DNA from: Coriobacteriia bacterium
GTDB lineage: Bacteria; Actinomycetota; Coriobacteriia; WRKU01; WQUG01
Assembly: GCA_009784345.1 (NCBI GenBank)
Contig: WRBW01000001.1
Coordinates: forward strand, 32,971-96,970
Length of the DNA stretch: 64,000 nucleotides
Direction of reading: 5' to 3'
Shown here: one piece after another, positions 476-63,668 of the stretch
How the letters are laid out: each line of letters opens with the position of its first letter
How positions within the stretch are numbered: position 1 is the stretch's first letter
Translations under genes and position numbers: made by a program
The notes under the pieces: generated by a model
The model's input: the letters and a program-made list of their open reading frames with translations, nothing else
What the model was told of the DNA's origin: nothing
Databases searched by the model: none

Positions 476-661
476 AACGCCAACTATCTATCATACGACA
501 GCTCTACGACAATCGACCATAATTACACATATAGGTTCAAAGTAGACACAGAAGCGGCGGAGCGAGTCCATACCAGCAAGGGCGATGTCTGAAGCATCAA
601 CTATAATTAAGGTGCTGACTTTCGCCTGTCGCAGGCACACCCCTCGAACAAAGGACAATTC

Positions 662-1591
662 GTGAAATACTTTCAGCAAGAGCTCGATGCATCAACTCAA
701 GGCGCTAGTGCATTAGTGGACGCTCTCCGCCAGGTTAAGGTCTTATATACCGACATTGATGGGACCGTGCTGGGCAAGCGTGGCTGCCTGCTGGTCGATG
801 GTGATAATGCGCCGTGTGCGGATACGGCTGTGGCGATTGTTGAGGCAAATGTCAGCCCCGATTTTGCCGTCGTGCCGTGTACCGGGCGCAGTGTGACTCA
901 GCTGATTGAGATTTCGCGCTTGCTGGGCTGGGATGATTTTATCGGCGAGGCAGGAGCGGTGCGCTCATACTGGAATGCTGCATCGGGGACGCGCGAGAAC
1001 TGTTATGACACGCCGGGCTGGTCGATCGAGCTGCAGGCGCAGTTGTCTGAAGATAACACGCCGCTTGATGTCATAAACGCCAGTGGTGCGATGGAGCGTC
1101 TTTTTGAGGCCTTTCCGGGGCAGATTGAGTACCACAGCCCCTGGAACGTGAATCGTCAGGCGACTAATGTTTTGCGCGGCCGTGTTGACCCTGTCCAGGC
1201 AACAGAGCTCTTTACCGATTTGGAGGTGCCCATTACGCTGATTGAAAACGGCGTGATTGCGCCCAGTGCCCACACCTTGATTGATGATGGTCAGCCCGTG
1301 CGCGCCTATCATTTGGCGCCGACTGGTGCCAGCAAGGGGGCTGCCATTGCGGCAGACTTAAAGCGGCGCGGCCTGCGTCGCGAGCAGGCGCTGATGGTGG
1401 GCGATGGTATGGCGGATCTGGAATGTGCTCCTGAGGTTGCGGCGATTTTCATGCTGAGCAATGCGCTGCATTCGCCCCGTATGGCAGCAGCGATGGAGCA
1501 GCTGGACAATGCCTATTTGGTTGAGGGTGCCCAGGGTACGGGTTGGGCGCAGCTGGTGCGTGCTATACTTGCGAGCAAACAGGGACGCTAA
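662..1591 (+). CDS. HAD-superfamily hydrolase (Cof-like, subfamily IIB)
   Basis: 309-aa ORF with HAD motif I YTDIDGT and motif IV GDGMAD. GTG start. Confidence 0.7.
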   Translation: MKYFQQELDASTQGASALVDALRQVKVLYTDIDGTVLGKRGCLLVDGDNAPCADTAVAIVEANVSPDFAVVPCTGRSVTQLIEISRLLGWDDFIGEAGAVRSYWNAASGTRENCYDTPGWSIELQAQLSEDNTPLDVINASGAMERLFEAFPGQIEYHSPWNVNRQATNVLRGRVDPVQATELFTDLEVPITLIENGVIAPSAHTLIDDGQPVRAYHLAPTGASKGAAIAADLKRRGLRREQALMVGDGMADLECAPEVAAIFMLSNALHSPRMAAAMEQLDNAYLVEGAQGTGWAQLVRAILASKQGR

Positions 1592-1681
1592 AGGGTCTTT
1601 TCTGTGAGTCGCTTGCGGCTGCTTTGGTGGGAAGCGCAGCCGCGGTTTTGAAGGCGACAAGGTGATTTTGAAGGGGAAATC

Positions 1682-4027
1682 ATGCTGTATTTATCTGAAT
1701 TTCTACATCTGCCCGTTGTTGATGCCAAAGGTAATAAGGTCGGCGAAGTCAGCGACCTGATTGTCAATGCAAAGGACATCTTTCCACGCGTGGTTGCCCT
1801 GTCTTTTAAGACGGGCGATGACACCGCACGCATCCTCGACTGGAAAGACAATGTCGCAGATTTCAAGCTGGGAGACGCAGACGATGAGCCTGGTGTGGGA
1901 ATACTCCTCAAAAGGAATCTCGATGCCCTGGAGTTCACTCATCTGCAAGATGACGAGCTGCTGCTGGGGCGCGACTTGCTGCATAAGCAAATCGTGGACG
2001 TCAAGGACAAGAAGGTCGCCCGCGTTAGTGACCTGAAGCTCTCTGCGGACGGCAGTGCGCTGCGCTTGCTGGGGGCAGAATGTGGCCTGACGGGCCGCCT
2101 GCACTTCATGGGTCCTTTCAAGGCGGGGCTGACCCGCGCCTGGATGGGGTTGACGGGCCACCAGATCAAGGAAGCCCTGATTGCCTGGAACTACATCGAC
2201 ATCCCCGGCCGTGATATGTCGCGTCTTGAAATGTCGATTTCGCATAAGCGTCTGGCGCAGCTGCGCCCGGCAGATATCGCCGACATCATCGAGCAGCTCG
2301 ACCCGGAGACGCGTCGCGCCGTGTTTGCGCATCTAGACAAAAAGGATGCTGCTGATACGGTCAGCGAGCTCGAGGACATCTATCAAACTGACGTCATTGG
2401 TGACCTGCCCGAAGACCACGCATCGAGCCTGCTTTCCGAGATGGAACCAGATGACGCCACCGACATCCTTTCAGGGCTAGAATATGAAAAGGCCGAAAAG
2501 ATTCTCCAGCTGATGGGGATAGAGGATGCAGAGGTGATACGAAAGCTCATGGGATATCGAAATAACAGCGCGGGTGGCATTATGACCCCCGAAGTTGCCG
2601 TCGCTACAGAAGACATGATTGTCGCTGAGGTCGCACAGCACCTGAAGGCGATTGATGATGACACCGGCGACCTGCACTACGTTTATATTGTTGACCGCGT
2701 GGACGGCGAAGGCAAGGCAGACCCCGCAGGACGCCTGCTAGGTGTTGTGACGCTGCTGGAGCTTCTGACCCATGACCCGTCGACGAGGTTGGCGGAGTTT
2801 GCCCATTACAACATCGTGAGCGCAAGTCCCGAAGAAGACCAGGAAGCCGTCGCAGAGCTCATAACCAAGTACAACCTGCTGGCACTGCCCGTTATTGACC
2901 AAGGTGGCCACCTGCTGGGCACCATTACGGTTGATGATGTGGTCGAGTTCATGGGCAAGGGCACGGGCAGACCTGTCGGGGTACCTGCGAGCGCAAAGTC
3001 TGAACTCGAAGGCACCGGCGCTGGTGCGTCTGCCGGCAAGGACGGGGACGGTGCAAAGCACCAGACCCTTGATGGTGGCACCATTGGGCAAGAGATTGGC
3101 GGCTTTTTCCGTAAGGCTTGGAACGGCTTTACCTGGGTGCTGCCGCAATACTTGACCTGGGTGGCACTGTGGATGGCCGCCTCCCTAATGGTCTTTGCGG
3201 GCCGCCCCGTGGTCATGAACATCATGGAGCGCATCATGGTCAACGTTGACCCTGCTCTTGAGACGGGTGCAGAAATCCCTCACTGGCTGCTGATGCTTGA
3301 TTTGAGCTTAATCTTTGTTCAGGTGACTTTGTTTGCCCTACCCTTTATCTTACTTGCGGTACACCACAGCGTACTGCGTGGCATAAGCGTCTACACTGAC
3401 AAGGTCGTTCTGGCACCAAAGGCCTTGATTCGCTATCTGTTGGCACTGGTTATTGGTGCGGCACAGGCCTGCCTGGGCTTTACCCTTGCTATTGCCCTCT
3501 ATGTGCTCAATACCAGCTTTTTGGGTATGTCGATAGAGATGGACAGCCTTGCCACCTTCTGGCATGAATTCACTGATTTTGCAGGCATCCTCGCAGTGCC
3601 CGTCTTTGTGCCCCTGCTGTTAGCCTGCCTGATAGCTTCGCTGTTTGCAGCATGGCGCATTGGCATCGTCGTCGATGCCGAAGAAGCCGGCAAGACCATC
3701 CACCCACGTCGCAATGCTGCGGCAACGATGCTGGTCTTCATGCTGAGCTTCATCATGATTACCTACCCCTTTGCCTGGATCTGGAATGCCTCGCAGCAGC
3801 GCAATGCAGCCATCGAGCAAGAAATGATGGGTGGCGATGAATGGGCAGACTGGGGCGACGAAGAGATGATGTTTGATGACCAGATGCTGCAGGAGCTTGA
3901 TTTAGAAGCACTGGGACTAGAGGGGCTGGATGGTCTGGATCTTGAGGGCATCAGCTTTGATGATGAGCCGGTCTATCATGAAGACTTGATGGGAACTGAC
4001 GATCAAGGCGAAGTAGTCCTAGACTAA
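1682..4027 (+). CDS. MgtE-N/CBS domain membrane protein (putative divalent cation transporter) with two N-terminal PRC-barrel-like repeats and an acidic C-terminal tail
   Basis: 781 aa. MgtE_N-like segment LAQLRPADIADIIEQLDPETRRAV...EPDDATDILSGLEYEKAEKIL, a CBS pair and a hydrophobic C-terminal half. RBS-like GAAGGGGAAATC precedes the ATG. Confidence 0.6.
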   Translation: MLYLSEFLHLPVVDAKGNKVGEVSDLIVNAKDIFPRVVALSFKTGDDTARILDWKDNVADFKLGDADDEPGVGILLKRNLDALEFTHLQDDELLLGRDLLHKQIVDVKDKKVARVSDLKLSADGSALRLLGAECGLTGRLHFMGPFKAGLTRAWMGLTGHQIKEALIAWNYIDIPGRDMSRLEMSISHKRLAQLRPADIADIIEQLDPETRRAVFAHLDKKDAADTVSELEDIYQTDVIGDLPEDHASSLLSEMEPDDATDILSGLEYEKAEKILQLMGIEDAEVIRKLMGYRNNSAGGIMTPEVAVATEDMIVAEVAQHLKAIDDDTGDLHYVYIVDRVDGEGKADPAGRLLGVVTLLELLTHDPSTRLAEFAHYNIVSASPEEDQEAVAELITKYNLLALPVIDQGGHLLGTITVDDVVEFMGKGTGRPVGVPASAKSELEGTGAGASAGKDGDGAKHQTLDGGTIGQEIGGFFRKAWNGFTWVLPQYLTWVALWMAASLMVFAGRPVVMNIMERIMVNVDPALETGAEIPHWLLMLDLSLIFVQVTLFALPFILLAVHHSVLRGISVYTDKVVLAPKALIRYLLALVIGAAQACLGFTLAIALYVLNTSFLGMSIEMDSLATFWHEFTDFAGILAVPVFVPLLLACLIASLFAAWRIGIVVDAEEAGKTIHPRRNAAATMLVFMLSFIMITYPFAWIWNASQQRNAAIEQEMMGGDEWADWGDEEMMFDDQMLQELDLEALGLEGLDGLDLEGISFDDEPVYHEDLMGTDDQGEVVLD

Positions 4028-4151: not shown

Positions 4152-4778
4152 ATGACGTGCGCCGACGAAAAGAAACATGTTCGTGACAAGGCGACCGCCA
4201 TCCGCAACGAGATCGCCGCAGACCCCGGAAAAATTTCCCGCGCTACAAAAGGCATTGCCACACAGCTTCTGAGCGTTCCGGCCGTGCGTGAGCTTCTTGC
4301 CTGGCCGCGCCAGGGCGGGGTTGCCAGCCCGCTCTTTGCCAGTTACGCCCCGCGTAGTGGCGAAGCTAATCCCAATGGTTTTCTCGACATCATTGAAAAA
4401 GACGGCGGAGCGCGTCCAAACATGGCCTTTCCTCGCGTTACGGGCAAGGCGCAGCTGTCGATGCACTACGCTACCGTAGAGGAGCTCGCGCCTGGCAGCT
4501 TTGGTATCGCAGAGCCCGGTGCAGACATGCCGGTAGCACGTTTGGCTGATATCGATGTGATTCTAGTTCCCGGGCTCGCCTTTGATGCTCAGGGTAATAG
4601 ACTGGGCTACGGACGGGGCTACTTTGATCGCCTGCTGGGCAGCTGTGATGTCTGCGACTTGCCGCTGCTGATAGGCATTACCTATGATGAGACGCTGCTT
4701 GAAAGTGTCCCCTGCGAGACTCATGATATTAAAGTGGACTATATTGTCACACCCACCATGTACCTTGAAGCGCACTAA
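4152..4778 (+). CDS. 5-formyltetrahydrofolate cyclo-ligase
   Basis: 208 aa. C-terminal GYGRGYFDR motif and DVILVPGLAFD are typical of the 5-FTHF cyclo-ligase family. AAGGAGG RBS upstream. Confidence 0.75.
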   Translation: MTCADEKKHVRDKATAIRNEIAADPGKISRATKGIATQLLSVPAVRELLAWPRQGGVASPLFASYAPRSGEANPNGFLDIIEKDGGARPNMAFPRVTGKAQLSMHYATVEELAPGSFGIAEPGADMPVARLADIDVILVPGLAFDAQGNRLGYGRGYFDRLLGSCDVCDLPLLIGITYDETLLESVPCETHDIKVDYIVTPTMYLEAH

Positions 4779-6130: not shown

Positions 6131-6847
6131 TTAGCTCGAAAAGTCCGTATTGACTGTATCACATTTCCCGTGTGTCGTGCGACTGAAGAGCCGTTCACAC
6201 AGACTCAGCACAGCATTCGCAAAAAGTGCCAGCAACATGGTCAAAAGGGTCGCCCACAAAAGCAGGTTCAGACTGTTCGTTCGCAGCCCCGTGAAAATGA
6301 GCGCGCCCAGGCCACCAGCATCGACAAGCGCCGCAATAGTGGCAATGCCAATGGTCGATATGGTCGCCAGTCGCACGCCCGCAATCAGGATTGGAGCCGC
6401 CAGGGGCAACTGCACGCTGGTAAAGGCTTGCAGACGCGTGCACCCCAAGCTGCGCGCTGCCTCATAGAGGCCCGTATCGACCGAGGCCAGACCTGCGCTA
6501 AAGTTGCGCACCAGCAGAAACTGATTGTAGGCAACCAAAACGATGATGGCCGTAGCTGTGCCGATGCCCAGCAAGGGAATGGCTAGCGCAAACAGAGCCA
6601 GACTGGGTACGGCATAAAGGGCAGCGAGGCTTGATTGGACAGACTCCGCCAGTTTATGGGCAGCATGCGGAGTGCGTCCATTACTTTTGAGCTGCCTGTT
6701 GTTTTGCAGCGCATCGATGCCTGCCGTGATGAGCGCTGCCAGCAGTATCGACAGCAGTACCGCGGTGATGACGAGGCTCAGGTGCTGGCCGGTTGCCGTG
6801 GCAAAGCGCGCGGTGTTGGCCACACCAAAGTGCCAGAAGTCGATCAT
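6131..6847 (-). CDS. ABC transporter permease (OpuCB/OpuCD-like osmoprotectant uptake)
   Basis: 238 aa, polytopic, with a binding-protein-dependent permease signature. In an operon with a lipoprotein substrate-binding protein. Confidence 0.7.
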   Translation of the reverse strand: MIDFWHFGVANTARFATATGQHLSLVITAVLLSILLAALITAGIDALQNNRQLKSNGRTPHAAHKLAESVQSSLAALYAVPSLALFALAIPLLGIGTATAIIVLVAYNQFLLVRNFSAGLASVDTGLYEAARSLGCTRLQAFTSVQLPLAAPILIAGVRLATISTIGIATIAALVDAGGLGALIFTGLRTNSLNLLLWATLLTMLLALFANAVLSLCERLFSRTTHGKCDTVNTDFSS

Positions 6848-7998: not shown

Positions 7999-8646
7999 TT
8001 AGCTGGGGAGGTGTTTCCAGGGGATGAGGCGGCGTTCGCACAGGTTCAGGAGCGCAAGGCTCGCAAGCGACAGGGCGGCAACTGATGCCCCGCCAATGAC
8101 CAGCAGGTCGGTGCGCATCAGGCCAAGACCCGTGAAGATGAGGGTCCCCAGGCCGCCACCCCCAATGAAGGCTGCCAACGTTGCAGATGCGATAACTTCA
8201 GTGGTGGCCGTCTTTATGCCCGCGAAGACTACCGGTGCTGCAAGGGGCAGCTTGACTTGCCAGAAAATCTTGAAGGAGCTCATTCCTAGGGCCTCGGCAG
8301 CCTCGACCGTCGCTGGGGGCAAGTGCGAGAAAGCAACGGTTGTGTTTATCATTACCGGCGGCAGAGCAAGCACGGTCAGGGCAAAGAGTGCCACCTGAAA
8401 GCCCACCTGTCCGGTTAAGACGACGATCAGAAATAAGAGAGCCAAGCTGGGTATGACACGCAGGGTTGAAAGCGTGCCAGTGACAATTGAGCGCGCCACC
8501 CTGTTGCGAGAAGATAAGACCCCCAGCGGAAAGCCAGCTACAATTGCAAGGGTAACCGCAGCCACAGCGATTGCGATGTGTTGCCACAGGGCATGGACGT
8601 ACTCTGCCGATGAAGAGTCAAAGTAGCTGATGATTGCGTGAATCAT
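7999..8646 (-). CDS. ABC transporter permease (second OpuC-like permease)
   Basis: 215 aa polytopic protein, paralogous to the 6131..6847 product. Confidence 0.7.
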   Translation of the reverse strand: MIHAIISYFDSSSAEYVHALWQHIAIAVAAVTLAIVAGFPLGVLSSRNRVARSIVTGTLSTLRVIPSLALLFLIVVLTGQVGFQVALFALTVLALPPVMINTTVAFSHLPPATVEAAEALGMSSFKIFWQVKLPLAAPVVFAGIKTATTEVIASATLAAFIGGGGLGTLIFTGLGLMRTDLLVIGGASVAALSLASLALLNLCERRLIPWKHLPS

Positions 8647-9757: not shown

Positions 9758-10576
9758 CTACTTCAGGGAGAGGAAGGCGGCGAGAGAGCCGCGGGGTAAA
9801 CCCGTTGCGCGGTGCGAAAAAAAGAGTTCAGGGTTGCAGGCCGTGCAGATGCCGGGTAGCTCGATGTTTTCCGCAGGAATACCTGCGCGTATGAGCGATT
9901 GACGGTTGATACCCTGCAGATCAATGAAGCTCTTTTCAATTTTCGTGGGGTGTTCTGCGATGAAGTCCTTTGACCAGGGAAGCTCTGACTTGAAGGCATC
10001 TGCGACATCAAAACTAACTTCAAAACATTCCTTGCAGATTGATGGGCCGATGCCCACCAGGACATCATGTGGGTCGCTGCCATAGTTTTCCACCAGCGAC
10101 TGAAGGGTTCGCGCGCCAATTTCACCTACGGTCCCCCGCCAGCCTGCGTGTGATAATCCAATGGCATGCATGACAGGGTCGACAAAGTAGAGCGGTACGC
10201 AGTCTGCATAGAAGGTCGCAAGCACCACATCTGGTTCATTCGTCACGAGGCCATCAATGCCCTTGTAGTCGCGCTGGCGCAGGGTGCCCTTGCCGCGATC
10301 TGCTGCCCCCACAGCTAGTACCTTGCACTGGTGGGTCTGTTGTGAGAAAACCATGCTCTCAAGCGGGAATCCCAAGGTGGAAAAGCGGCGAAAGTTTTCT
10401 TCGACGGCAGCTGGGTCGTCACCTAAGAGACCGCTTAAGTTCATGCTCGACCAGGGACCTGATGATACGCCACCAAGCCGGGTCGAGAAGGCGTGATGGA
10501 CGTGCTCCCCCGCTGTGCCTTGCGAGAGATTTTCAAAGCTGAAGTAGGTGATGCGATTGCGGGTGTTGCGAATCAT
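9758..10576 (-). CDS. pgeF: peptidoglycan editing factor PgeF / YfiH (DUF152 laccase-domain purine nucleoside phosphorylase family)
   Basis: Motifs HQCKVLAV, LVTNEPDVVLATFYADCVPLYF, GLSHAGWRGT, GPSICKECFEV. Start moved to the internal ATG (MIRNTR...) because the upstream ATG at 10630 lies inside a repeat element. Confidence 0.75.
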   Translation of the reverse strand: MIRNTRNRITYFSFENLSQGTAGEHVHHAFSTRLGGVSSGPWSSMNLSGLLGDDPAAVEENFRRFSTLGFPLESMVFSQQTHQCKVLAVGAADRGKGTLRQRDYKGIDGLVTNEPDVVLATFYADCVPLYFVDPVMHAIGLSHAGWRGTVGEIGARTLQSLVENYGSDPHDVLVGIGPSICKECFEVSFDVADAFKSELPWSKDFIAEHPTKIEKSFIDLQGINRQSLIRAGIPAENIELPGICTACNPELFFSHRATGLPRGSLAAFLSLK

Positions 10577-12089: not shown

Positions 12090-13928
12090 CTAAGGTGACT
12101 CGTGGTAGGTTGGGGCGGCTTCGATACTACCATCCGCAAGCCCCACTTCAAGTTGTTCGCGCATTTTGTACTTCATGATTTTTCCGCTGGTGGTCAGAGG
12201 AAATTCGTCAACAAAGAGGACGTATTTTGGTGCTTTGAAGCGCGCCATCTGCTCATAGCAGGCCTCTTTGACATCGACCTCGTCGAGTTGCGCGCCCGGC
12301 TTCAAAATGATGAAAGCTGCGGGTAGCTCCCCATATTTGCCGTCAGGCGCTGCGACGACCTGAACGTCTTGAACTTCAGGAAGCGTATAGAGGAATTCTT
12401 CAATTTCACGCGGATAGATGTTTTCGCCCCCGCGGATAATCATGTCCTTGATGCGCCCGGTGACTCGGTAGTAGCCTTTGTCGTCAACGGTGCCCAGGTC
12501 ACCTGAATGCAGAAAGCCATCTGCATCTATCGCCTCGACCGTGGCTGCGGGCATCTTATAGTAGCCCTTCATGACCTGGTAGCCTCGACAACACAGTTCG
12601 CCTACCTGGTTTGGACCGCACTCCTCCCCCGTTTCGGGGTCAATGACCCGCACGTCAGCGTGTGGCATGGCCTTGCCGACCGTTTCGGCGCGCACCTCTG
12701 GCGGGTCGTCGGTGGTCGTCATCGTGAAGACGGGGCTGGTTTCGGTGAGCCCGTAGGCTATGGTGATTTCGCTGCAGTGCATGTCGGTCATGACCTGCTT
12801 CATGGTTTCGACGGGGCAGGGTGAGCCTGCCATGATGCCCGTGCGCAGGCTGGTCAGGTCGAATTTGGCAAAGTCTGGATGGTTCATGACGGCGATGAAC
12901 ATGGTTGGTACGCCGTAGAGGGCGGTTGCGCGCTCTTTTTCGATGGCTGAGAGGGTCAGGAAGGGGTTAAATTCTTCGAGCAGGACGTGGGTTGCGCCGT
13001 GGGTCAGTACGGCCATGACGCCCAAAACGCAGCCAAAGCAGTGGAAGAGCGGGACGGGTAGGCAGACGCGATCTGCAGTTGTTAATTGCTGACACTGGCC
13101 GATGTAGTAGCCGTTATTTAAGATATTGCGGTGCGAGAGCTGCACCCCTTTGGGAAAGCCAGTTGTGCCGCTGGTGTACTGCATCATGGCGACGTCATCT
13201 GGCTTGACGTCGTAGAAGGCGTCCATGACGGTGGCACCCGGGGTGTGCTGCCCGAGGATCAGCAGTTCTGGCATGCTGTAAAAGCCTTTGTGCTTTTCAG
13301 GACCCATGTATATCAGGTGCTTCAGATGGGGGAAGCGCTCTGATTTGAGAAAACCGCGCGGCATGGTTTGCGATTCCGGAACCAGATCGCGGATGGTCTT
13401 GACGTAGTCGACGTCACGGAAACTGTCGATGACGGCCAGTGCGTCGAGATCTGCCTGTTCTAGCACGTAGGCGAGCTCGTGAGCCTTGTAGGCGGAGTTC
13501 ATGGTGACCATGACGACACCGATTTTTGCTGCCGCAAACATGAAGGTTAGCCAATCAGGGACGTTGCGCGCCCATACGCCCAGGTGCATGCCACGTCGAA
13601 GCCCAATGGCAAGCATGCCTTTTGCTAGGGCGTTGACGCGATCGTCAAACTGCGCGTAGGACCAGCGCAGACCGCGGTCGGGCATGACCAGAAAGTCCTG
13701 GTCGGGGTTTTGGGCGACTTCCTTTTCGAGGAATTGACCAATCGTCAGGTCTGTGAAGGGGCCTGCGTAGCTGGCTTGTTGTTGGATGACTTCGGGGACC
13801 TCGTAGGCGTCGAGATTGTCCAGACCTGCGGCCTCAGAGGCGGCAAGGTGCAGAGCGACGTTTATGGGCAGGTCGGGGCGAAGCTCATAGGTCTTTGCCG
13901 TGGGATTCATATTGATGGGCGTGCTCAT
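12090..13928 (-). CDS. AMP-dependent acyl-CoA synthetase / fatty-acid--CoA ligase
   Basis: AMP-binding signature [20 protein letters not shown] plus motifs [14 protein letters not shown] and GDLG..D..GY; 612 aa. Confidence 0.8.
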
Positions 13929-13944
13929 GGACGTGCTCCTCTGG

Positions 13945-14678: not shown

Positions 14679-14836
14679 TTCTTTGATTCTCCTTTTTGCA
14701 GATAGACGGGAGGCAACGAAAGTCTAGGTTAGCACACTGGCGGAGTGCGTCCATGAAAAATGGACCGCAACAGCTTGTGCGTTGCGATCCACTCTTTTGA
14801 GTTCATTTGCCCTGCGCTGGCTTGCTGCAGGTGGTG

Positions 14837-22162: not shown

Positions 22163-22258
22163 GTTTGTTTTTCAAGCCTTAATACTCTATATGAAAACGA
22201 GCTGTAATGCAAGTATCATTCTTTCAGGTTTGGACGTACTCCCCCGCATTTATGCTAG

Positions 22259-47293: not shown

Positions 47294-47368
47294 TACCCAT
47301 TACCTTTCTGTCAAAACACCAGCTGACTATTATACTCTTTTCACTTTACGCTCGTTGTTTGGTTGTGG

Positions 47369-47406
47369 AGGGCGTCCATAGCTGCTGGTTTGGACGCGCT
47401 CCCCCA
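47369..47406. terminator. hairpin (GGAGGGCGTCCA..12 nt..TGGACGCGCTCCCC) at right edge of low-GC block
   Basis: A 12-bp imperfect inverted repeat downstream of the 47453 gene and upstream of the exporter operon. The stem contains the GCGTCCA core of the over-represented motif. Confidence 0.5.
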
Positions 47407-50196: not shown

Positions 50197-50928
50197 ATGA
50201 GTAAACAGGCTGCAAAGATACATAAAATGCGCGAAAAAGAACTGGGATTTCCCTTTCCTGCCGCGACCAGCCGCATCGGTCCAGTCACGCAAGAGCGCGC
50301 CCGCGCGGTCGCCCGCAGACTCGAGGCTGCCTACCCCGGCGACCCGACGCCCTTTTTGCACTTCGCCACGCCCTACCAGTGCGTAGTTGCCGTCGCGCTT
50401 TCGGCGCAAACGACGGACAACAACGTCAATAAGGTGCTGCCGGAACTCTTCGAGCGCTGGCCGGACTGCGCGACCCTGGCACGCGCCGATCAAGAAGAGC
50501 TGGAGGAGTGCGTCCATTCACTGGGATTTTACCGGCAAAAGGCGCGCAACCTCAGAAAGATGGCAGCAATCTGTGTTGAAGACTTCGGCGGGCTCATTCC
50601 GGATTCGATGGTCGAACTCCTCCGCCTACCCGGGGTAGCACGCAAGACTGCCAATATTGTGCTCTCTGAAAGCTTTGGTATTGTGCAGGGCATCGCGGTT
50701 GACACGCATGTGTATCGTGTCTCGACGCGTCTTGGGCTGACCCATGCAAAGACGCCCGAAAAGTGTGAAGGCGACCTTTTGAAGGCTTTTGACTATGCTG
50801 ATTGGCGCCGCATTAATCACGACATGATAAGCCTGGGGCGGGCGATATGCGATGCACGAAAGCCCCTGTGCGGGCGCTGTCCGCTGGCTGAGCTTTGCCC
50901 CAGTTATGAAAAATTCAAAAGAAGTTAG
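50197..50928 (+). CDS. nth: endonuclease III (DNA glycosylase/AP lyase)
   Basis: HhH-GPD motif LPGVARKTANIVL and the [4Fe-4S] cysteine ligands CDARKPLCGRCPLAELC; the alignment with E. coli Nth was done from memory. Confidence 0.85.
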   Translation: MSKQAAKIHKMREKELGFPFPAATSRIGPVTQERARAVARRLEAAYPGDPTPFLHFATPYQCVVAVALSAQTTDNNVNKVLPELFERWPDCATLARADQEELEECVHSLGFYRQKARNLRKMAAICVEDFGGLIPDSMVELLRLPGVARKTANIVLSESFGIVQGIAVDTHVYRVSTRLGLTHAKTPEKCEGDLLKAFDYADWRRINHDMISLGRAICDARKPLCGRCPLAELCPSYEKFKRS

Positions 50929-51043: not shown

Positions 51044-53974
51044 ATGACCCGCTGGTACCAGCTCGACCGCACCGAAGCATTGACGAAAATAGGCAGCGAT
51101 GCCACGACCGGGCTGTCCAGCGATGAGGCCCGTCGCAGGCTGGAAAAGTACGGCCCGAACCAGCTTAATGAGGCTCCGGCTACCCCGCTGTGGAAGGTCT
51201 TTGTGCTGCAATTCAAGGACTTTTTGATCTACATTTTGCTGGCAGCCGTCCTGATTGCCGCCCTGCAAGGCCAAATCATCGAGGCCATTGCGATTCTGAT
51301 AATCCTCATAGTCAACGGCATCCTAGGCTTTGTGCAAGAGTACCGCAGCGGCAAGGCCCTCGAAGCCCTGAAGCAAATGGCAGCGCCCATGGCCTATGTC
51401 ATGCGCGACGGCAGGCAGCAGCATCTGCTGTCAAGCCAGCTGGTGCCCGGCGACATCGTCATGCTCGAGGCCGGCAATACCGTGCCTGCCGACGGCCGCC
51501 TCATTGATGCCGCTGCCCTGCAGATTAATGAGTCCGCCCTGACCGGCGAAAGCGAACAGGTCCGCAAGACCGCTGACACCCTGACAGGCGACCACGACAT
51601 CCTGGGCGACCAGGAAAGCATGGTCTTTGCTTCAACGACGGTCAGTGCTGGACGGGGCACCCTTGTCGTGACCAGCACCGGCCAGTCAACAGAAATGGGC
51701 AAAATCGCCACCCTGCTGGACAGTACCCAGCAAGGCGACTCGCCGCTGCAAATAGAAATCGAGCGCACTGGCAAGCACATCGGCATCGCCATACTGGTCA
51801 TCGCGGCAATCATCTTTGTCCAGGGCATCCTCGCCGGCAGCCTGCCCCTGCTGACCGATGCCAGCAGCAGCCTGAGCCTGGGCCAACTGCTGGCAGACCC
51901 CGGCTTTCGCGCCATTTTGACCTCGACGATGCTCGTCGCCATCGCGCTCGCCGTCGCCGCGATTCCTGAAGGCCTGCCCGCCATCGTCACCGTCACCCTG
52001 TCACTGGGGGTCAGACGCATGGCCGCGCGCCACGCCATCATGAAGCGCCTCCACGCCGTCGAAACCCTGGGCTCGACGACCTACATTTGCAGCGACAAAA
52101 CCGGCACGCTGACCCAAAATGTCATGACCGTCAAGCGCCTGGTCCTGGGCACCCAAGTCCTGCGCGTCCACGGAAGCGAACTGGGCGTCTTGCCCCGCGC
52201 GAGTGAACTGACAGAGGCCGCCTCCACAAAAGCGGAGGAGTGCGTCCACACCAGCAGCCCCTGTTCGCCCGTGCAGGAACTGCTTGACGCTCGCATCGTC
52301 AATGAAGCTGCGCTGAAAACACTGCTTTCGATAGCTAGCTCCTGCAACGACGCGCACTACACGGCTGGCGGTGAACTGGTAGGTGACCCCACAGAAACAG
52401 CACTGGTCGCTTGCGTTCGCGACCTGATGCCTGATCTGCAATCGCAGCTGCCGCCGCGCGTGTCAGAAATCCCCTTTGACAGTGACCGCAAACGCATGTC
52501 GGTCATCTTAGATGACTCCAGCGCGGGCCTTCCCCGCTATATTACCTTTGCCAAAGGCGGCTTTGACACCCTCATCCCCTGCTGTACGCATGCTCTCGTC
52601 GACGGTCACATCGTCGCCTTAGACGATGCTCTGCTTGCCCAGCTGAGCGCAGAAAACGAGCGCTTTGCCAGCGAAGGGCTGCGCACGCTCGCCTTCGCCC
52701 TGCGCGAAGACACAGCACTGCCACAGCGCGACGATGACGTCGCGGGCATCGAGTCACGCCTGATTTACGTTGGCATGATGGCCTCGCAAGACCCGCCCCG
52801 CCCCGAAGTCCCCGCAGCGGTACGCACCGCGCAGGAGGCCGGAATTAAGGTCTGCATGATCACCGGTGACCACATCCTGACAGCTAGCGCCATCGCCCGC
52901 GAGGTCGGCATCCTGACTGATGACATGATGGCTGACGGACGCAAGCACAGTATGACGGGTAGCGAAATCGAAGCCTTAAGCGATGACGAACTGGCAGACA
53001 TCGCCTGCGACATTCGGGTCTATGCCCGCGTCAACCCGGAGCATAAAATTCGCATCGTGTCAGCCCTGAAAGCTCGCGGCCAGGTCGTTGCCATGACGGG
53101 CGACGGCGTCAACGATGCACCCGCCCTGAAGCGTGCAGACATCGGCGTCGCCATGGGGGTTGTGGGTACCGATGTAACCCGCGAAGCCGCAGACATGGTG
53201 CTGTCCGACGACAACTTCAGCACCATCGTTGCCGCCGTCGAAGAAGGCCGCACCGTCTTTGCCAATCTAAAGAAAGTCATCATCTACCTGATGGCATCGA
53301 ACTCGTCTGAAGTCATGGTGGTCGCCCTGATCGCGCTCTTTGGAAGCTCGCTTGCCGCCCTCCTTGCCGGCGCTGGTTCAACCGTTGCCGTCGCAAACCT
53401 GCTGCCCCTGCAATTGCTGTGGATCAACCTCATGACTGATGGCTTCCCCGCCCTTGCTCTGGGCGTCGACCCCGCCGAGCGCGACGTCATGGCCCGCCGC
53501 CCCCGTAACGCCCGCAAGCCCATCCTGAGCCGCCAACGCTGGACACAAATCCTGGCCCAGGGCCTGGTGCTGACCGTCGCCGCCCTGCTGACCACCTTTG
53601 TCGTGGCGCCGTGGATGGGGGGCTTACTCCGCCCCGAAATGCCCTCGCTGGCAGACGGCGAAGCCCTGACGCGCACCATCTTGCTGATGAGCATCGCCTT
53701 CAGTCAAATGTTTTTCATCTTCATATACCGCAGCGAAAGCTACAGCGTTTTCTCGCGCGATAGCTTCAGCAATAAGTGGCTGAACGCGACCTTCGTCTTT
53801 ACGGCGCTGGCGCAATTCGTGGTGATTTACGTGCCGGCCTTTGCAAGTGTCTTTGGCTTCGTGCCCTTGAATGTGGCGGAGTGGCTGTCCATTCTGGTCA
53901 TGTCTCTGCTGGCGCTGGCCGCTGCCGATGCCATCGGGATTTTCGCGAGTAAACGTCTTCGTGCCATCGAGTAA
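51044..53974 (+). CDS. calcium-translocating P-type ATPase (P2A/SERCA-PMR1-like)
   Basis: CSDKTGTLTQN, TGDHILTA, GDGVNDAPALKRADIGVAMG, 10 TM; 976 aa. Confidence 0.85.
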   Translation: MTRWYQLDRTEALTKIGSDATTGLSSDEARRRLEKYGPNQLNEAPATPLWKVFVLQFKDFLIYILLAAVLIAALQGQIIEAIAILIILIVNGILGFVQEYRSGKALEALKQMAAPMAYVMRDGRQQHLLSSQLVPGDIVMLEAGNTVPADGRLIDAAALQINESALTGESEQVRKTADTLTGDHDILGDQESMVFASTTVSAGRGTLVVTSTGQSTEMGKIATLLDSTQQGDSPLQIEIERTGKHIGIAILVIAAIIFVQGILAGSLPLLTDASSSLSLGQLLADPGFRAILTSTMLVAIALAVAAIPEGLPAIVTVTLSLGVRRMAARHAIMKRLHAVETLGSTTYICSDKTGTLTQNVMTVKRLVLGTQVLRVHGSELGVLPRASELTEAASTKAEECVHTSSPCSPVQELLDARIVNEAALKTLLSIASSCNDAHYTAGGELVGDPTETALVACVRDLMPDLQSQLPPRVSEIPFDSDRKRMSVILDDSSAGLPRYITFAKGGFDTLIPCCTHALVDGHIVALDDALLAQLSAENERFASEGLRTLAFALREDTALPQRDDDVAGIESRLIYVGMMASQDPPRPEVPAAVRTAQEAGIKVCMITGDHILTASAIAREVGILTDDMMADGRKHSMTGSEIEALSDDELADIACDIRVYARVNPEHKIRIVSALKARGQVVAMTGDGVNDAPALKRADIGVAMGVVGTDVTREAADMVLSDDNFSTIVAAVEEGRTVFANLKKVIIYLMASNSSEVMVVALIALFGSSLAALLAGAGSTVAVANLLPLQLLWINLMTDGFPALALGVDPAERDVMARRPRNARKPILSRQRWTQILAQGLVLTVAALLTTFVVAPWMGGLLRPEMPSLADGEALTRTILLMSIAFSQMFFIFIYRSESYSVFSRDSFSNKWLNATFVFTALAQFVVIYVPAFASVFGFVPLNVAEWLSILVMSLLALAAADAIGIFASKRLRAIE

Positions 53975-57200: not shown

Positions 57201-59017
57201 GGCGCCTGTTGACAGCAACGGATGGTACGGTTAAAAATGGCGGAGCGCGTGCTAGCCTGGCCACCTTTGCCGAGTACAACAACCACGGTTCGGTCTACCT
57301 GCACGCGGGTCAGGGCGTCGATGCATCAGGCTTTGGCATAAGGCGTGCGGGGCAGTCACTGATTGTCGCCGGAGACCTGCATGTGGTGGGTGAAGGTACG
57401 GCCTATATTCAGTCGCAGGGTGCGCTCAATCAGGCGGTGTTTAACGATGTTCACATAGCTGATACGCTGACCTGGCTGCGTGTGGGTGACACCTCTGCCG
57501 CGAATTTCAGCCCGCTGACCAGCTGGTTTGGTGCAGCTCGAGGCTGGCATGTCTTTACCTTGAATCCGCAGCGTGAGCGTGCGCTGAAAGTCAGCCCCTT
57601 TAATTTGGAAGGCATCGACGAGTCAAATGGTCACACCTATCTGGGCGACAGCGTGGTACCTTCCAGTGGTGCCAGCGGCTTTGCCGTCTGTATTCCCGGT
57701 GCGAAATATCGCTGGCAGGTTACCGCTGGCGAGGGCATGGTCACCCATGATGTGGACATTACGGTAAGCACGGGCGAAACACCCTCGAGCCCTGTGCACG
57801 GTATTGGCTCGGTTGGCAAGGGTGTGCCATCGCAGTCAGGCATGATTGCCGTGCCCTCAGAGTTTGTTCCTGACCCGATGAACTATCCGACCTTTAGTTT
57901 TATCCCCCATGCCCCGCGCGGCGAATGGGTGGAGGGCGTCCAGATTCACCGTTCAGACTGCCTGCTGACAGACCCGCAGCACAGCTTGCGCTGCATCACT
58001 ATTCCTGAAGTTCCGCTGCCAGACTATCACCAGGACTATGTCGATGGCTTGCCCCCAGGCTGGGCCACCTGGACAGCGCAGGGCGATGATCGCTACTTTA
58101 GCTTTGACATTGCAGCTCAGTACACCCATGACTGCGAACTGCAGGCACGCAGCGTCATCATTACCGAGTCTGAAGCGGCAGCGATTGCAGATGCTGGCTG
58201 TATTACGGGCTATCAAGAGGCCATGGGACGCCCCTTCTTTAGGCATGACATTGACGACGCACTGCTTGCAGCAATTCGTCAACCACTGGCTGATGGCCTT
58301 TACTTAAGGTCACATCCCGTGACCTACAGCACGGGGCGCGCCGTAACAGGCGACGTCGCCTCAGCTGCACTCACGACGCTGACGGTTAAGGTCGTTGTGG
58401 TGCGCGATGGCAGCGTACTTTCAGAAGATCGCAGCTACGGCGTATGGGCAAAAGATGCCCGCATGACCTTAAGCATCGCACAGGAGATGCAGCGCGAGCG
58501 CTTAGATAGTCGCTACACCCATGCGATGGCCTTCACCTCGCAGGGAACAACAGATACCCCGACCCTTGCGGCAGGAGTGCTTGAAGACATCAGGTCAAGT
58601 ACGGCAGAACAGGTGCCGCGTGACGTGGTTGCCAGCTATTCGTTCCTGCCCGCAGACGCAGCAGGTTCCGGCACGGCAGATGGGCAGACCTTGGTGCCGG
58701 CGAGCATCGATGTCATCATCAGCATCATCCCGAACTGGCCCACCCCGACGGGTCTTCGCATGAGCAGTGTCAGGCTGGGCAGCCTGTTGCTGTTCCCCCT
58801 GGGGCTTGCCGTGCTGGGTGCCTGCGGCTACGCCGGTCACACCCGGCGCACGCTGGGGCAGCTGATGCCACCGCCATCGCAACAAGGCGAAATCCTTGAC
58901 GCAGGGCACGATAAGCCCAAGCCGCCGCCGTCACCATCGGCAGCAGCTACTGCAGAAGCAGCTGCAGTAGCGCCTGAACCGAAGCCATCAAGCCAGCACG
59001 TCATCTGGAAAATATAG
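54227..59017 (+). CDS. giant secreted Gly/Thr/Ser-rich beta-helix-like repeat surface protein (1596 aa)
   Basis: N-terminal signal/TM (ITGLGIPALTIIISLLIIFSVANFSANA). Dozens of GGxxxG/TGN-type repeats typical of a parallel beta-helix. C-terminal hydrophobic segment plus basic patch (LLLFPLGLAVLGACGYAGHTRR), then a Pro/Ala-rich tail. Confidence 0.7.
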   Translation: MDIQDVVSSSTSARIITGLGIPALTIIISLLIIFSVANFSANAVGEANITAIEATPTASHMAAGSAALDLVDVPDLLATADPAASAPDPAASTDDGDLALITPGEGPRVRQATRGIDAPLGGNTLQAGDTTRLVVMAVVGDPAEGYYESYPASHAGVNSALTDLHQSGDPSSSYVMYVGANITGIPVARYANTEAPGTFSGLAGRIHTLVITGNAQDPINTAAALNAAPTERRQFTRGDGDSWFGSHIILRNVQHRLGSNVYMKGHNLTLGGSSWQTAATNYFGGSNTGNITSREGTTTLTVYSTGTGDSNFFGGMNAGTFTGNTAIVIRGSSGNAIMTRGGGSGTDGARAHVMGNVSTTITGLDTRTWGLSSFLGGVHYGNISGQITNHISGPGRFVWTGGSTSGDVGGGHYVGGSRTGSVGGADTIAAPIKTDGLDMDYSPLLDNTNYAIFNDIDTSAYTNGRKYFIGANTAAGTITGNVINVVKAGTVNAGGLTGLQALGGIGTTINNTWPSALSGSTSTGRVTGIERARELAESQAGFRVYGNAVTVVRAGHITAGGDINYYRGAGYGGYIEGDIYSAIGTEGLVYQTTLNTYQYRVNPNAGISQGYSTTFDLVGGGGREGWNDSTFIAGDTHIVLKEVRARWTYGSSFGGVLQGDSLIELHAGVVDTLEGAGYLTYVHVGDSRAEVHGGQVEWFLSGGGWNDHWHDGNVSVEVFDGPPPNTPIINASMGGTYGNSTAHYTSGDSTMVIRGGDFSGVPRRGPSGFSSGPTNAGYIFGNASMTLDLRGNQHGFKTSAANAVSAGRSTVASGDSYLGFNHNNTIELNIFTDDDGGDLLSRMNIYGDASASGVHDRTRSGHITMNINAPGSTIGNLYATSYVNLTGTATSRMLWRNVEMNLVSAANIEGLSAGNGFTDTGAGADTNTLRSDVAQRSIAAGRQAIIKVGPHTDDPAHPLGERETTVPENGRPRVINVAGVGITGFTRMDITRRLLTATDGTVKNGGARASLATFAEYNNHGSVYLHAGQGVDASGFGIRRAGQSLIVAGDLHVVGEGTAYIQSQGALNQAVFNDVHIADTLTWLRVGDTSAANFSPLTSWFGAARGWHVFTLNPQRERALKVSPFNLEGIDESNGHTYLGDSVVPSSGASGFAVCIPGAKYRWQVTAGEGMVTHDVDITVSTGETPSSPVHGIGSVGKGVPSQSGMIAVPSEFVPDPMNYPTFSFIPHAPRGEWVEGVQIHRSDCLLTDPQHSLRCITIPEVPLPDYHQDYVDGLPPGWATWTAQGDDRYFSFDIAAQYTHDCELQARSVIITESEAAAIADAGCITGYQEAMGRPFFRHDIDDALLAAIRQPLADGLYLRSHPVTYSTGRAVTGDVASAALTTLTVKVVVVRDGSVLSEDRSYGVWAKDARMTLSIAQEMQRERLDSRYTHAMAFTSQGTTDTPTLAAGVLEDIRSSTAEQVPRDVVASYSFLPADAAGSGTADGQTLVPASIDVIISIIPNWPTPTGLRMSSVRLGSLLLFPLGLAVLGACGYAGHTRRTLGQLMPPPSQQGEILDAGHDKPKPPPSPSAAATAEAAAVAPEPKPSSQHVIWKI

Positions 59018-59989: not shown

Positions 59990-60090
59990 GATTAACTCGA
60001 GATGAAAGAAAGCTGAAAGAAAGGTGAACACACTATGAAAGAAACATTAAAGAGAATTAACGCAAGATGAAAGAAACCTTAAAGCAGGTG
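59990..60090 (+). repeat. three degenerate tandem copies of ATGAAAGAAA(C)-NTTAAAG (about 33-bp period)
   Basis: gagATGAAAGAAAgctgaaag..ATGAAAGAAAcattaaagagaattaacgcaag ATGAAAGAAAccttaaagcaggtgg. The third copy opens a 45-codon ORF (MKETLKQVVECVHYCLSPR...). Confidence 0.6.
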
Positions 60091-60214
60091 GTTGAGTGCG
60101 TCCATTATTGCTTGTCACCCCGGCTCCTGAACCGTGGTCACGCCTGGCTGTCATCCCGTACTCCGACACGACATCTCGCCCTTGACCTATACACTACCAG
60201 ATAGATCTGCTAGG

Positions 60215-60256: not shown

Positions 60257-60293
60257 ATAGCTCAAACACCCAAACTAGCCAAAGGAGCCTTTC

Positions 60294-61418: not shown

Positions 61419-61581
61419 AATCTAACCCCCTTAGCCTTATCGTAGTTATGATTTACGAGATACATTTTCATCTTCCCACCGTCACTTCCTCCACCTCATA
61501 GATTCCTAGTTTTGGCATCTTGTTTGTCACCCCGCCTGTACGGGAATTACCGCGAGTCTACCCAGCGAGTTGCACCTTAAT

Positions 61582-61725: not shown

Positions 61726-62129
61726 AATCTTCTCCCTTCTTTATGCCAGCCTTCCCCAGCTGGCTCATCATCTGGCGGAGCACGTCCAGCATCCCCCACC
61801 CCTCGTCACAATAAGTCTCCCAAACACCTCAGACATACTAATTTCACAAATACCACACAAATGAACGCCCATCTCAATCGCACAAAAAAGAGCCCCACTC
61901 CCGCGAAACTCTCCATTTTCTTGCAACAGAATGACTTCCTTGCAGCGCTAACTTGAAAATATTTTTACGAAACTTGTAACTTTACTTTCAAGTTATCTTG
62001 GCGGAGTACGCCCAAACCTCCCATAGCTGTCCACTTCCTGAGCGAAAGCTGCAGCTGTAGACCAATTTGTATTTATATATGTTAGAATATGGTCATATGT
62101 TAGACATTAGAAAGTGAGGTTTAACCTTT

Positions 62130-62749: not shown

Positions 62750-62825
62750 CCTATCTCAGTACGCCCAAACCACCACACCACATCACCCACCCACTCACCC
62801 CTATTGAGCATCTTTACTCAAGACA

Positions 62826-62886
62826 CTGAGCAGATTTGTTCAGTGTATTGAACATTTTTGTTCACTATACTGAACAAATCTGCTCG
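62826..62886. repeat. 58-bp near-perfect palindrome at truncation point of ATPase pseudogene
   Basis: GAGCAGATTTGTTCAGTGTATTGAACA tttt TGTTCACTATACTGAACAAATCTGCTC: 27-bp arms with 2 mismatches. Confidence 0.8.
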
Positions 62887-63478
62887 TATAGACATCACAG
62901 ACTCAGAAAGTGGCCAAAACTGGATACAAGAGCAATGGCTTGCAGCGCGCATGCTCATTACAGAACAAAGCCCTTCTGCGATTCTAGTACTGGATGAAAT
63001 CCAAAGTGTTTCACAGTGGGCAACCATCTTAAAAATACTCTGGGATCAAGATGCTCGAACGGGAGTCGACCTCCGCGTAGTGGTGACGGGCTCTTCTGCG
63101 CTGCTGCTTCAGTCAGGCTTGTCAGAATCTCTCATGGGGCGATTTGAGATTATTCCCTCGACTCACCACAAACCCATCTTACAGACCCTGCAAAATATGG
63201 CCGACTCGCAGAAAGTGCCATCGGAGCTTATCTGCTGGGGCGCGGAAAGGTCGATGGCTTTGACCTGTACTGGTGGCGCGATGGAAACCTAGAGGTCGAC
63301 TTCGTCATTAAAAAAGGAGTCCATGCTATAGGCATTGAGGTAAAGTCTGGCAGCATGAAAAGCTACAAGGGCATAACAAAGTTTCGCGATAGCTTCCCTG
63401 ATGCAAAAGTTATCTTAGTCGGGGATAGCAACATTACCATTGAGGACTTTCTGCTGGGCAAAGTCCCCCTGTTCTAGA
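62858..63478 (+). pseudogene. N-terminally truncated, frameshifted AAA-family ATPase (AAA_14 + DUF4143 type)
   Basis: ILVLDEIQSVSQW...LRVVVTGSSALLLQSGLSESLMGRFEIIPS, then after a frameshift at about 63290 ...VDFVIKKGVHAIGIEVKSGSMKSYKGITKF...KVILVGDSNITIEDFLLGKVPLF. No Walker A region. Confidence 0.5.
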
Positions 63479-63668
63479 GCCAGCAAACATAAAGCGGCGG
63501 AGTACGCCCAGCATCCCCCACCCCTCGTCATTCTGAACTTGATTCAGAATCTCGCCCTTGACCTTCATTGCACCTGTGCCTAACGGCACAGGACCAGTAT
63601 CCGTTGCTTCGCTACGGGCAAACTGTCGCAGAACCGTCATTGAGGATCAAAGGCCGCAGTGACGGCAT

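Follow-up and report, generated by a model that had tools for sequence, protein, structure and literature searches.

To our knowledge, sequence-specific DNA uptake accompanied by genome-wide recognition words is confined to two proteobacterial families, with the Neisseria and Haemophilus types. These words are the DNA uptake sequences of the Neisseriaceae (DUS; the 12-mer ATGCCGTCTGAA and its dialects) and the uptake signal sequences of the Pasteurellaceae (USS; core AAGTGCGGT or ACAAGCGGT), whose cognate receptors are ComP in Neisseria and the predicted ComN in Pasteurellaceae. Why such words exist is still debated, with selection for self-DNA set against pure molecular drive. Another hyper-abundant word, HIP1 (GCGATCGC) of cyanobacteria, is lineage-specific, occurs inside and outside genes and has long been maintained, its function being unresolved. 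Here we describe a 15-bp word with the consensus GGNGGAGTRCGTCCA in a 64,000-nt stretch of DNA (contig WRBW01000001.1 of assembly GCA_009784345.1, positions 32,971 to 96,970; hereafter, the window) from an uncultured Coriobacteriia bacterium of the termite gut. We consider it a robust, previously undescribed genome-wide word in Coriobacteriia. Comparison with orthologues indicates that its copies arise in place by point substitution rather than by insertion, and we tentatively read it as a non-mobile self-DNA recognition word, probably tied to uptake or recombination.

The likeness to DUS is extensive. Both words are short, asymmetric and of high information, recur every 1–3 kb on both strands, occupy coding DNA (with a frame bias) as well as intergenic DNA, can form inverted pairs after genes, are rare in acquired DNA and are shared, in varying degree, by related lineages. 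USS share the same genome anatomy, the codon-preferring frames and the siting at tolerant or compatible peptide positions. However, GGNGGAGTRCGTCCA is unrelated in sequence to both and belongs to no known dialect of either; its host is a Gram-positive member of the Actinomycetota (Coriobacteriia), so that neither phylum nor cell envelope is that of the known systems. In addition, the word lacks the AT-rich flanking segments of USS and, as differences from DUS, ~14% of its copies lie in inverted pairs and its density varies among lineages, down to absence, with no dialects found. Both comparisons are of sequence anatomy alone.

A sequence-only reading of the window had proposed a strongly over-represented motif, and this was upheld. 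Its pattern, GGMGGAGTRCGYCCA, gave 26 matches in 64 kb at up to two mismatches, compared to 0.68 expected; none of 100 dinucleotide-preserving shuffles of the window gave more than 3. The 12-mer core GGAGTRCGTCCA, counted at up to one mismatch, gave 22 matches in the window (0.37 expected), and GAGTGCGTCCA was among the words most in excess in an unbiased k-mer survey. All of the copies originally listed were present to within a few bases (two starts are corrected here, 50502 replacing 50503 and 60090 replacing 60094) and the 20-mer common to 52229 and 63491 is real; the 45-codon open reading frame (ORF) that had been placed after 14739 is not called as a gene in any public assembly of the contig. 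The excess was graded by mismatch number across the 41 kb of native-composition DNA: 6 copies with no mismatch (<0.005 expected), 11 with one (0.03 expected), 6 with two (0.39 expected), 14 with three (4.5 expected) and 44 with four (38.5 expected), at which point no excess was left. A gradation of this kind is described for uptake sequences in a passage of PMC1939737. Native DNA, which is ~55% GC, carries ~1 good copy per 2.5 kb, and by extrapolation to the whole genome copies would occur about every 2–3 kb on both strands.

A logo built from 54 distinct copies, combining those of the window with those on other contigs of the same organism, resolved the word as GGNGGAG(T>C)(G/A)CG(T>C)CCA. 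The two leading G's of the logo were partly raised by the search seed, although most window copies also have both. The 15-bp bounds are sharp; upstream there is only a faint A/A/G/C preference and the flanks are otherwise unconserved. The 15-mer is non-palindromic, has no self-complementarity and carries ~24–25 bits of information. A literal search of the searchable literature with the motif and its reverse complement matched only unrelated primers, and Rfam applied to the window at the gathering threshold returned three tRNAs and nothing else.

Restriction of the copies to the window by a local duplication, which would have undermined a genome-wide word, was looked for and the opposite was found, with the motif recurring on at least 20 other contigs. 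In a metagenome scan seeded with GGNGGAGTGCGTCCA, most matches were single and due to chance, and 20 of the 118 match stretches came from four termite-gut samples. Beyond the seeds, these 20 stretches (78.6 kb) held 14 further relaxed copies, or 1.8 per 10 kb, which is 13-fold higher than the 0.14 extra copies per 10 kb in unrelated match contigs (578 kb). None of the termite-gut match contigs overlaps the window, and many share its tetranucleotide signature (r = 0.8–0.95). Motif-bearing frames on them encode housekeeping proteins unrelated to one another, namely Obg, a class II aminoacyl-tRNA synthetase, LeuA, glycine dehydrogenase (GcvP), a PLP enzyme, a LytR-family protein and TauE. The unseeded left flank of the window on its own contig (8.3 kb, 54% GC) contained 3 copies at ≤1 mismatch, and the right flank (8.7 kb, 45% GC, defence genes) a single 2-mismatch copy. 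A scan of viral contigs gave single chance matches only, with no phage enriched. The contig carrying the window (~100–130 kb) is present in independent termite-gut metagenome assemblies of ENA, JGI and Logan; its versions are 99.6–100% identical and carry the same copies, so that comparison of polymorphic sites was uninformative. An assembly or adapter artefact was considered and rejected, given the same copies in the three independent assemblies and conserved genes that stay in frame.

Window positions 24000–47000 form a polysaccharide-synthesis island of 45% GC encoding glycosyltransferases, a Wzy-type polymerase and an ABC-2 exporter. In tetranucleotide composition the island correlates with native DNA at r = 0.35, compared to r = 0.94 for the left flank. 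These 23 kb contain no copy at ≤2 mismatches to GGNGGAGTRCGTCCA (binomial P ~ 4e−5); the looser pattern of the sequence-only reading gives one 2-mismatch match there, at 45532. From 59 kb onward the window enters a toxin-antitoxin/defence island of 45–48% GC, where all motif copies are intergenic. Recently acquired DNA is poor in the word, with 0 copies in the 23-kb island and 1 weak copy in the 8.7 kb of defence genes, and this parallels the lack of uptake sequences from genes without homologues in DUS and USS genomes. The 45% GC of the polysaccharide island equals that of low-GC sister lineages. The defence island extends ~9 kb past the window (L143 11663–20411) and includes Gp49/HTH, two Phd antitoxins, a PIN toxin, an AAA_14 fragment, a YhcG nuclease and a C5 DNA methylase, the last followed by AIPR, DUF4420 and Z1 genes. 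GC skew is positive over 1–24 kb and negative from 28 kb, flipping sign at window ~24000–28000; the flip falls at the island boundary, so it may stem from insertion of the island or from gene direction and not from an origin or terminus.

The motif had been described as oriented and likened, among other things, to Chi sequences, and this was not supported on recounting. At ≤2 mismatches the window splits into 15 plus-strand and 11 minus-strand copies, the latter including eight that had been overlooked (717, 6636, 8594, 10497, 13928, 47391, 50609 and 53619). Part of the apparent strand bias arose because position 3 of the pattern had been written A/C, shutting out minus-strand copies with G there. 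Orientation is mixed even inside one 24-kb stretch (7+/7−). Among copies inside long open frames 17 are sense and 21 antisense, and with respect to local GC skew 25 copies are co-oriented and 34 opposed (P = 0.30); polarity was judged from strand, genes and local GC skew. The 38 copies in long open frames amount to 62%, against a range of 34–65% in coding DNA for known uptake sequences (65% in H. influenzae). Because the 23 of 61 copies outside long frames far exceed the usual non-coding share of a bacterial genome, intergenic DNA is enriched in the word. The motif is a feature of the DNA rather than of RNA or peptide.

Within genes, the word is strongly biased in frame. The sense frame xxG GNG GAG TGC GTC CAx is used by 15 of the 17 sense copies, and the antisense frame xTG GAC GCA CTC CNC Cxx by 15 of the 21 antisense copies. 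Of the six possible frames, these two rank first in mean relative synonymous codon usage (1.19 and 1.27, compared to 0.65–0.92 for the rest); stop avoidance is not the cause, since all six frames are free of stop codons. Findlay and Redfield likewise found that frame choice in USS and DUS tracks preferred codons, and that such sequences occupy residues of poor conservation and do not occur in genes that have no homologue in relatives (PMC2817400). In our orthologue comparisons, coding copies sit at variable residues or on peptides that were already compatible. The sequence-only reading held that every coding copy on the plus strand reads Glu-Cys-Val-His, which is true of nth and the Ca-ATPase and of no other: the copy at 57928 shares their frame yet reads VEGVQ, that at 4404 uses another frame, and minus-strand genes carry those at 17947, 19794 and 48673 in antisense. 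The peptide EECVH was dismissed as a general source of the word, because copies between genes or antisense to them are no less frequent than sense copies and the other proteins have no such peptide in common. A reading as an ECF (extracytoplasmic function) sigma-factor promoter or RfaH ops-like element was also set aside, the motif lying in both orientations inside genes.

Orthologue comparisons indicate how the copies were made. Codon alignments with syntenic Coriobacteriia orthologues were gapless at 5 of the 8 coding sites compared, namely the two in murB, that in the 139-aa gene, nth 50502 and Ca-ATPase 52234; the weak nth site at 50609 is gapless too, and the Cu-oxidase_4 and Ca-ATPase 53619 sites fall within gapped regions. 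The orthologous nth, murB and Ca-ATPase genes had been put forward as a check on the presence or absence of the motif, and at their gapless sites relatives differ by substitutions only. At the murB antisense site, for example, GGC GCA CTC CTC CAC in this genome aligns to GG(T/A/C) AAG TT(A/G) CT(T/A) CA(C/T) in three relatives; here (19794) the AAG to GCA change replaces K by A, alongside synonymous changes, the three relatives having K and L006 having Q. At the murB sense site, G-E-F-V-H is ancestral and was already near the motif, a TTC to TAC change completing the core, and at Ca-ATPase 52234 EEDVQ became EECVH. Because only substitutions separate these orthologues, a mobile repeat of the insertion type is excluded at the gapless coding sites, and the footprint of a short targeted mobile repeat, as once proposed, finds no support for the coding copies in murB, the 139-aa gene, nth and Ca-ATPase 52234.

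The word is not confined to this genome. The MurB of the window is an NCBI protein from a metagenome-assembled genome (MAG) that is labelled Coriobacteriia bacterium. The nearest GTDB species representative is a Coriobacteriia MAG with 61% MurB identity, and at the murB locus four relatives (61–76% MurB identity, 46–48% GC) showed no motif enrichment. A motif unique to this species was first concluded from these murB-locus relatives, and was overturned by three relatives compared at the nth locus, L266 (52% GC), L267 and L268 (both 47.5% GC), with 70–76% Nth identity. Together these three hold 6 exact and 8 one-mismatch matches to GAGTRCGTCCA in 41.5 kb, compared to 0.03 and 0.8 expected. The exact 15-mer occupies the same nth codons in this genome, L266 and L267, with one mismatch in L268, and neighbouring synonymous sites vary among the lineages. 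No exact copy was found in L137 + L269, L139 + L270 (~42 kb for each lineage) or L006, where near-copies were at background. For one-mismatch counts the order-3 Markov null is permissive (an observed/expected ratio of ~4 is seen even in unrelated genomes), and evidence in relatives was therefore limited to exact copies or large excesses. Thus, the word is abundant in this genome, less so in some sister lineages and missing from others that were sampled, and since some sister lineages carry it, it is older than this species. The most frequent k-mers of L135, L137, L139 and L006 were tried as dialects and rejected; the spurious excess came from RCC1 protein repeats.

Two further differences among the lineages were observed. 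GC content is ~55% here compared to 45–48% in most of the nearest relatives (52% in L266), with synteny conserved, and this large GC shift in a single lineage coincides with the highest motif density (window versus L135, L137, L139 and L267–L270). Decayed copies with a common ACG to ATG change (GGAGTATGTCCA) were seen at L099 63, L103 864, L267 82 and L270 13678, as deamination of a methylated CpG in the motif would produce.

Some copies are arranged as inverted pairs. Four are clear, at window 6636/6666 and 47364/47391, L065 262/280 and L100 5357/5376, and their folding energies are −20 to −29 kcal/mol, with z-scores between −3.1 and −5.1 (−20.6 kcal/mol, z = −3.5, for 6636..6680 and −22.2 kcal/mol for 47364/47391). 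The L100 pair is followed by a U-run, as in an intrinsic terminator, and the 6636 pair lies within a coding sequence (CDS). What had been listed as a variant at 47369 is indeed a plus-strand copy, and is one arm of the pair 47364(+)/47391(−). An equivalent pair (GGCGGAGTATGTCCA...TGGACAGACTCCGCC) occurs at L267 54–96 after the gene orthologous to that of the 566-aa protein, with unrelated loop and flanks. Inverted-repeat uptake sequences in terminators are standard and well documented in DUS and USS genomes, and some of the intergenic pairs here may similarly act as hairpins at the 3′ ends of genes, to judge from their folds. With about 8 of 58 copies (~14%) paired, this role would be secondary.

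The earlier comparison to uptake signals holds as a likeness: the sequence-level tests that were run (genomic spread, orientations, frame bias, island scarcity and lineages) fit it, and the inverted pairs may do so as well. In the reading we tentatively prefer, the word would be a double-stranded-DNA recognition mark of the native chromosome in this Coriobacteriia lineage. Copies, created by point substitution, would be fixed preferentially and accumulate wherever the protein code or intergenic function tolerates them, with a protein that reads the word biasing its fixation. By analogy with DUS and USS, that reader could be a surface DNA-uptake protein of a naturally transformable cell; word-bearing fragments bound by it would recombine more often, and molecular drive would spread the word through the core genome, leaving recently acquired DNA without it. 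Some intergenic copies would since have been co-opted as hairpin pairs at gene 3′ ends and, because of its position at an ATG, the GGAG of copy 13928 could be a putative ribosome-binding site. We know of no established process other than uptake-driven molecular drive that gives the whole pattern. Preferential uptake coupled to recombination is the molecular drive that a section of PMC1939737 describes for DUS and USS. An extract of PMC4322843 describes natural transformation through Flp pili in Micrococcus luteus, itself a member of the Actinomycetota, and because transformation exists in that phylum, phylogeny leaves room for uptake here. It is possible, albeit doubtful, that the word represents a third independent family of the uptake-signal type and the first outside Proteobacteria, with sequence-specific uptake in a Coriobacteriia clade of Gram-positive gut symbionts, through a receptor perhaps on a Flp/Tad- or Com-type filament, and with gain, amplification or loss of the word from one sister lineage to another.

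Several observations weigh against uptake. The ~160 kb examined showed neither competence nor pilus genes and no candidate receptor, the host is an uncultured MAG, and we know of no Gram-positive bacterium shown to take up DNA sequence-specifically. A substitute word or dialect was sought in the motif-free lineages after masking RCC1 repeats, and none was found. In the favoured sense frame the word calls for Cys, a residue that is rare. At nth, where EECVH is ancestral and conserved, lineages without motif enrichment still keep GAG GAG GTY GTC CAT, so that part of the conservation at this site has another cause. More generally, all of the features listed would also come from any long-lived DNA word under positive selection or drive.

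One rival is the binding site of an abundant chromosomal protein whose role is unrelated to uptake and whose sites are kept by ordinary selection at many positions. Nucleoid organisation, an FtsK-like translocase of the TraB kind found in Actinomycetota (TraB of Streptomyces recognises 8-bp repeats, both plasmid-borne and chromosomal) or a mark of self for a nuclease or defence system would be examples, and a sharply bounded, asymmetric 15-mer, confined to native DNA, conserved at orthologous positions and graded in its excess, is compatible with such a site. We nevertheless consider this somewhat unlikely. The words read by known proteins of this kind, namely the FtsK-orienting polar sequences (KOPS), Chi, the SpoIIIE recognition sequences (SRS) and the TraB recognition sequences, are 5–8 bp long and KOPS, SRS and Chi are strongly polar, whereas the motif is 15 bp and non-polar; parS, Noc-binding sites (NBS) and matS are palindromic and number in the tens rather than ~1 per 2.5 kb, and selection on hundreds of dispensable coding sites is hard to sustain without drive. 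A context-biased repair or conversion process, for example very-short-patch repair linked to a cytosine methyltransferase, would need no reader at all, and an origin of that type has been proposed for HIP1 in cyanobacteria. The C5 DNA methylase gene just past the window, the CG to TG change in several decayed copies and the move of lineage GC from ~47% to ~55% relative to relatives are in keeping with it. Yet the contexts of known patch repair span 4–6 bp, compared to an asymmetric 15 bp of ~25 bits, and no vsr gene was seen beside the methylase. HIP1 is similarly abundant in and out of genes, but it is a palindromic octamer of far lower information than this non-palindromic word, and repair bias strikes us as improbable.

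If the motif were primarily one half of a terminator or mRNA-stabilising hairpin, resembling repetitive extragenic palindromic (REP) elements, its coding copies would be by-products. The four stable pairs, one with a U-run and one conserved in position across lineages, and the single copies just past stop codons (e.g., 22231 and 62000) speak for such a role, but most copies are unpaired, the majority lie inside genes, whether sense or antisense, a lone copy has no self-complementarity, and the genome has a separate hairpin family at gene ends, leaving this account quite improbable. REP elements, bacterial interspersed mosaic elements (BIMEs) and miniature inverted-repeat transposable elements (MITEs) are likewise dispersed, with some intergenic hairpins after genes; they differ in being extragenic, palindromic or bounded by terminal inverted repeats, and spread by insertion, whereas the word is mostly intragenic and made by substitution. 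Specifically, REP/BIME elements are extragenic imperfect palindromes of 20–40 nt, compared to 15 bp with most copies in long open frames, and a MITE would appear as an insertion against an empty site, compared to gapless alignments and unconserved flanks. A mobile micro-repeat footprint, whether a MITE or REP end or the copied target of a transposase or recombinase, could account for the 35-nt motif-headed repeat present three times in the toxin-antitoxin island and for the motif abutting a second repeat family. We give it the least weight of all, the gapless sites in murB, the 139-aa gene, nth and Ca-ATPase 52234 showing substitutions only, without target-site duplications and with no transposase or RAYT gene seen. 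A polar, Chi-like or KOPS-like word for a recombination nuclease or FtsK is also very improbable. The motif is G-rich and frequent in core DNA, and all 6 exact matches to the pattern of the sequence-only reading are on the plus strand; Chi, KOPS and SRS are also over-represented native words, but they are 5–8 bp long and strongly co-oriented with replication, in contrast to the mixed strands, gene orientations and GC-skew relations of the 15-bp word.

Were the reading as a self-DNA uptake word true, this Gram-positive gut symbiont would supply an independent case for the debate between self-DNA selection and drive. Sister lineages with differing density, or with no word, provide a natural comparative experiment, which could show a gene co-varying with the word, the pace of its accumulation and decay, and its interplay with a large GC shift. 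Even without uptake, a non-polar 15-bp word at ~1 per 2.5 kb in housekeeping genes implies a novel DNA-reading activity. As a specific marker, the word can also be used to bin contigs of this lineage and to pick out its recently acquired islands. The copies in the window are listed in Table 1.

Table 1. Copies of the word, and members of a second repeat family, in the window
Element	Position	Strand	Context
GGCGGAGCGAGTCCA	556..570	+	2 mismatches; intergenic, ~90 nt upstream of HAD-like hydrolase gene 662-1591
GGCGGAGAGCGTCCA	717..731	-	Antisense in HAD-like hydrolase CDS
GGCGGAGTTTGCCCA (weak)	2791..2805	+	2 mismatches; CDS of MgtE-domain protein; chance possible
GGCGGAGCGCGTCCA	4404..4418	+	Sense in 5-formyl-THF (tetrahydrofolate) cyclo-ligase CDS; minority frame, GGARP
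Inverted pair TGGACAGACTCCGCC, 15-nt spacer, TGCGGAGTGCGTCCA	6636..6680	.	Within ABC permease CDS 6131-6847(-)
GGCAGAGTACGTCCA	8594..8608	-	Sense in permease CDS 7999-8646(-)
GGGGGAGCACGTCCA	10497..10511	-	Sense in Cu-oxidase_4 (YfiH-like) CDS; GEHVH
AGAGGAGCACGTCCA	13928..13942	-	Final A is the A of the ATG of AMP-binding enzyme gene 12090-13928(-)
GGCGGAGTGCGTCCA (exact)	14739..14753	+	Intergenic, between RCC1-repeat gene and cupin gene; a separate terminator hairpin adjoins
GGAGGAGTGCGTCCA (exact)	17947..17961	+	Antisense in 139-aa gene, MDALLH there; orthologue codons unrelated
GGAGGAGTGCGCCCT	19794..19808	+	Antisense in murB
GGGGGAGTACGTCCA	20210..20224	-	Sense in murB, GEYVH; nearest relative has GGGGGAGTTCGTCCA at the same codons
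GGGGGAGTACGTCCA	22231..22245	-	Intergenic, 14 nt past P-type ATPase stop, before tRNA-Ile
TGCGGAGCACGCCCA (weak)	45532..45546	-	GT2 gene; sole near-copy in the low-GC island; chance possible
Inverted pair GGAGGGCGTCCA, 12-nt spacer, TGGACGCGCTCC	47364..47405	.	Intergenic, 48 nt past stop of 566-aa gene
ACAGGAGTGCGCCCA (weak)	48673..48687	+	Antisense in 566-aa CDS
GGAGGAGTGCGTCCA (exact)	50502..50516	+	Sense in nth, EECVH
GGAGGAGTTCGACCA (weak)	50609..50623	-	Antisense in nth
GGAGGAGTGCGTCCA (exact)	52234..52248	+	Sense in Ca-ATPase, EECVH; relative has GGAGGAGGACGTCCA (EEDVQ)
GGCGGAGTAAGCCCC (weak)	53619..53633	-	Antisense in Ca-ATPase
GGTGGAGGGCGTCCA	57928..57942	+	Sense in 1596-aa CDS; favoured frame
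GGTTGAGTGCGTCCA	60090..60104	+	Intergenic, toxin-antitoxin island; second-repeat-family member follows directly
GGCGGAGCACGTCCA	61774..61808	+	Heads 35-nt repeat (motif + GCATCCCCCACCCCTCGTCA)
GGCGGAGTACGCCCA	62000..62014	+	Intergenic, ~115 nt upstream of Phd antitoxin gene
GGCGGAGTACGCCCA	63496..63530	+	Intergenic; heads 35-nt repeat (motif + GCATCCCCCACCCCTCGTCA)
Second repeat family	4033-4072, 7916-7956, 9735-9750, 10605-10664, 12031-12088, 13948-14071	-	
Second repeat family	59217-59257, 60108-60188, 61520-61539, 63530-63564	+	

The second repeat family is organism-specific, strictly intergenic and co-oriented with neighbouring genes, and was absent from the relatives examined. Its members run in the order CCTTGTCACC, a GC-rich hairpin and TCTCGCCCTTGACCTT; the stem is often CCCCGCAC-loop-GTGCGGGG, and other stems occur between the same flanks. 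With flanks that stay constant and a stem that can be exchanged, the family resembles a module of the REP or terminator type. The 35-nt repeat occurs three times in the toxin-antitoxin island, its third, degenerate example being at 61204-61238, and the motif at 60090 is fused directly to a member of the second family, which suggests modular intergenic cassettes.

The 1596-aa (54227-59017) and 566-aa (47453-49153) proteins have no Pfam domain at E ≤ 1e−3, and orthologues of the latter adjoin the same ABC ATPase in all relatives. The RCC1-repeat protein (14837-17767) is 976 aa long here and 1080–1676 aa in relatives, with varying repeat number. Within the toxin-antitoxin island, a near-perfect 19 + 19-nt palindrome (60221-60258, 95% complementary) immediately precedes a Phd antitoxin gene and an inverted repeat with 27-nt arms (62828-62885) overlaps the start of the AAA_14 fragment ORF; both are likely operators. 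Just upstream of the copy at 60090, positions 59980-60084 hold a short, irregular array of ATTAA-N-GATGAAAGAAA-like units.

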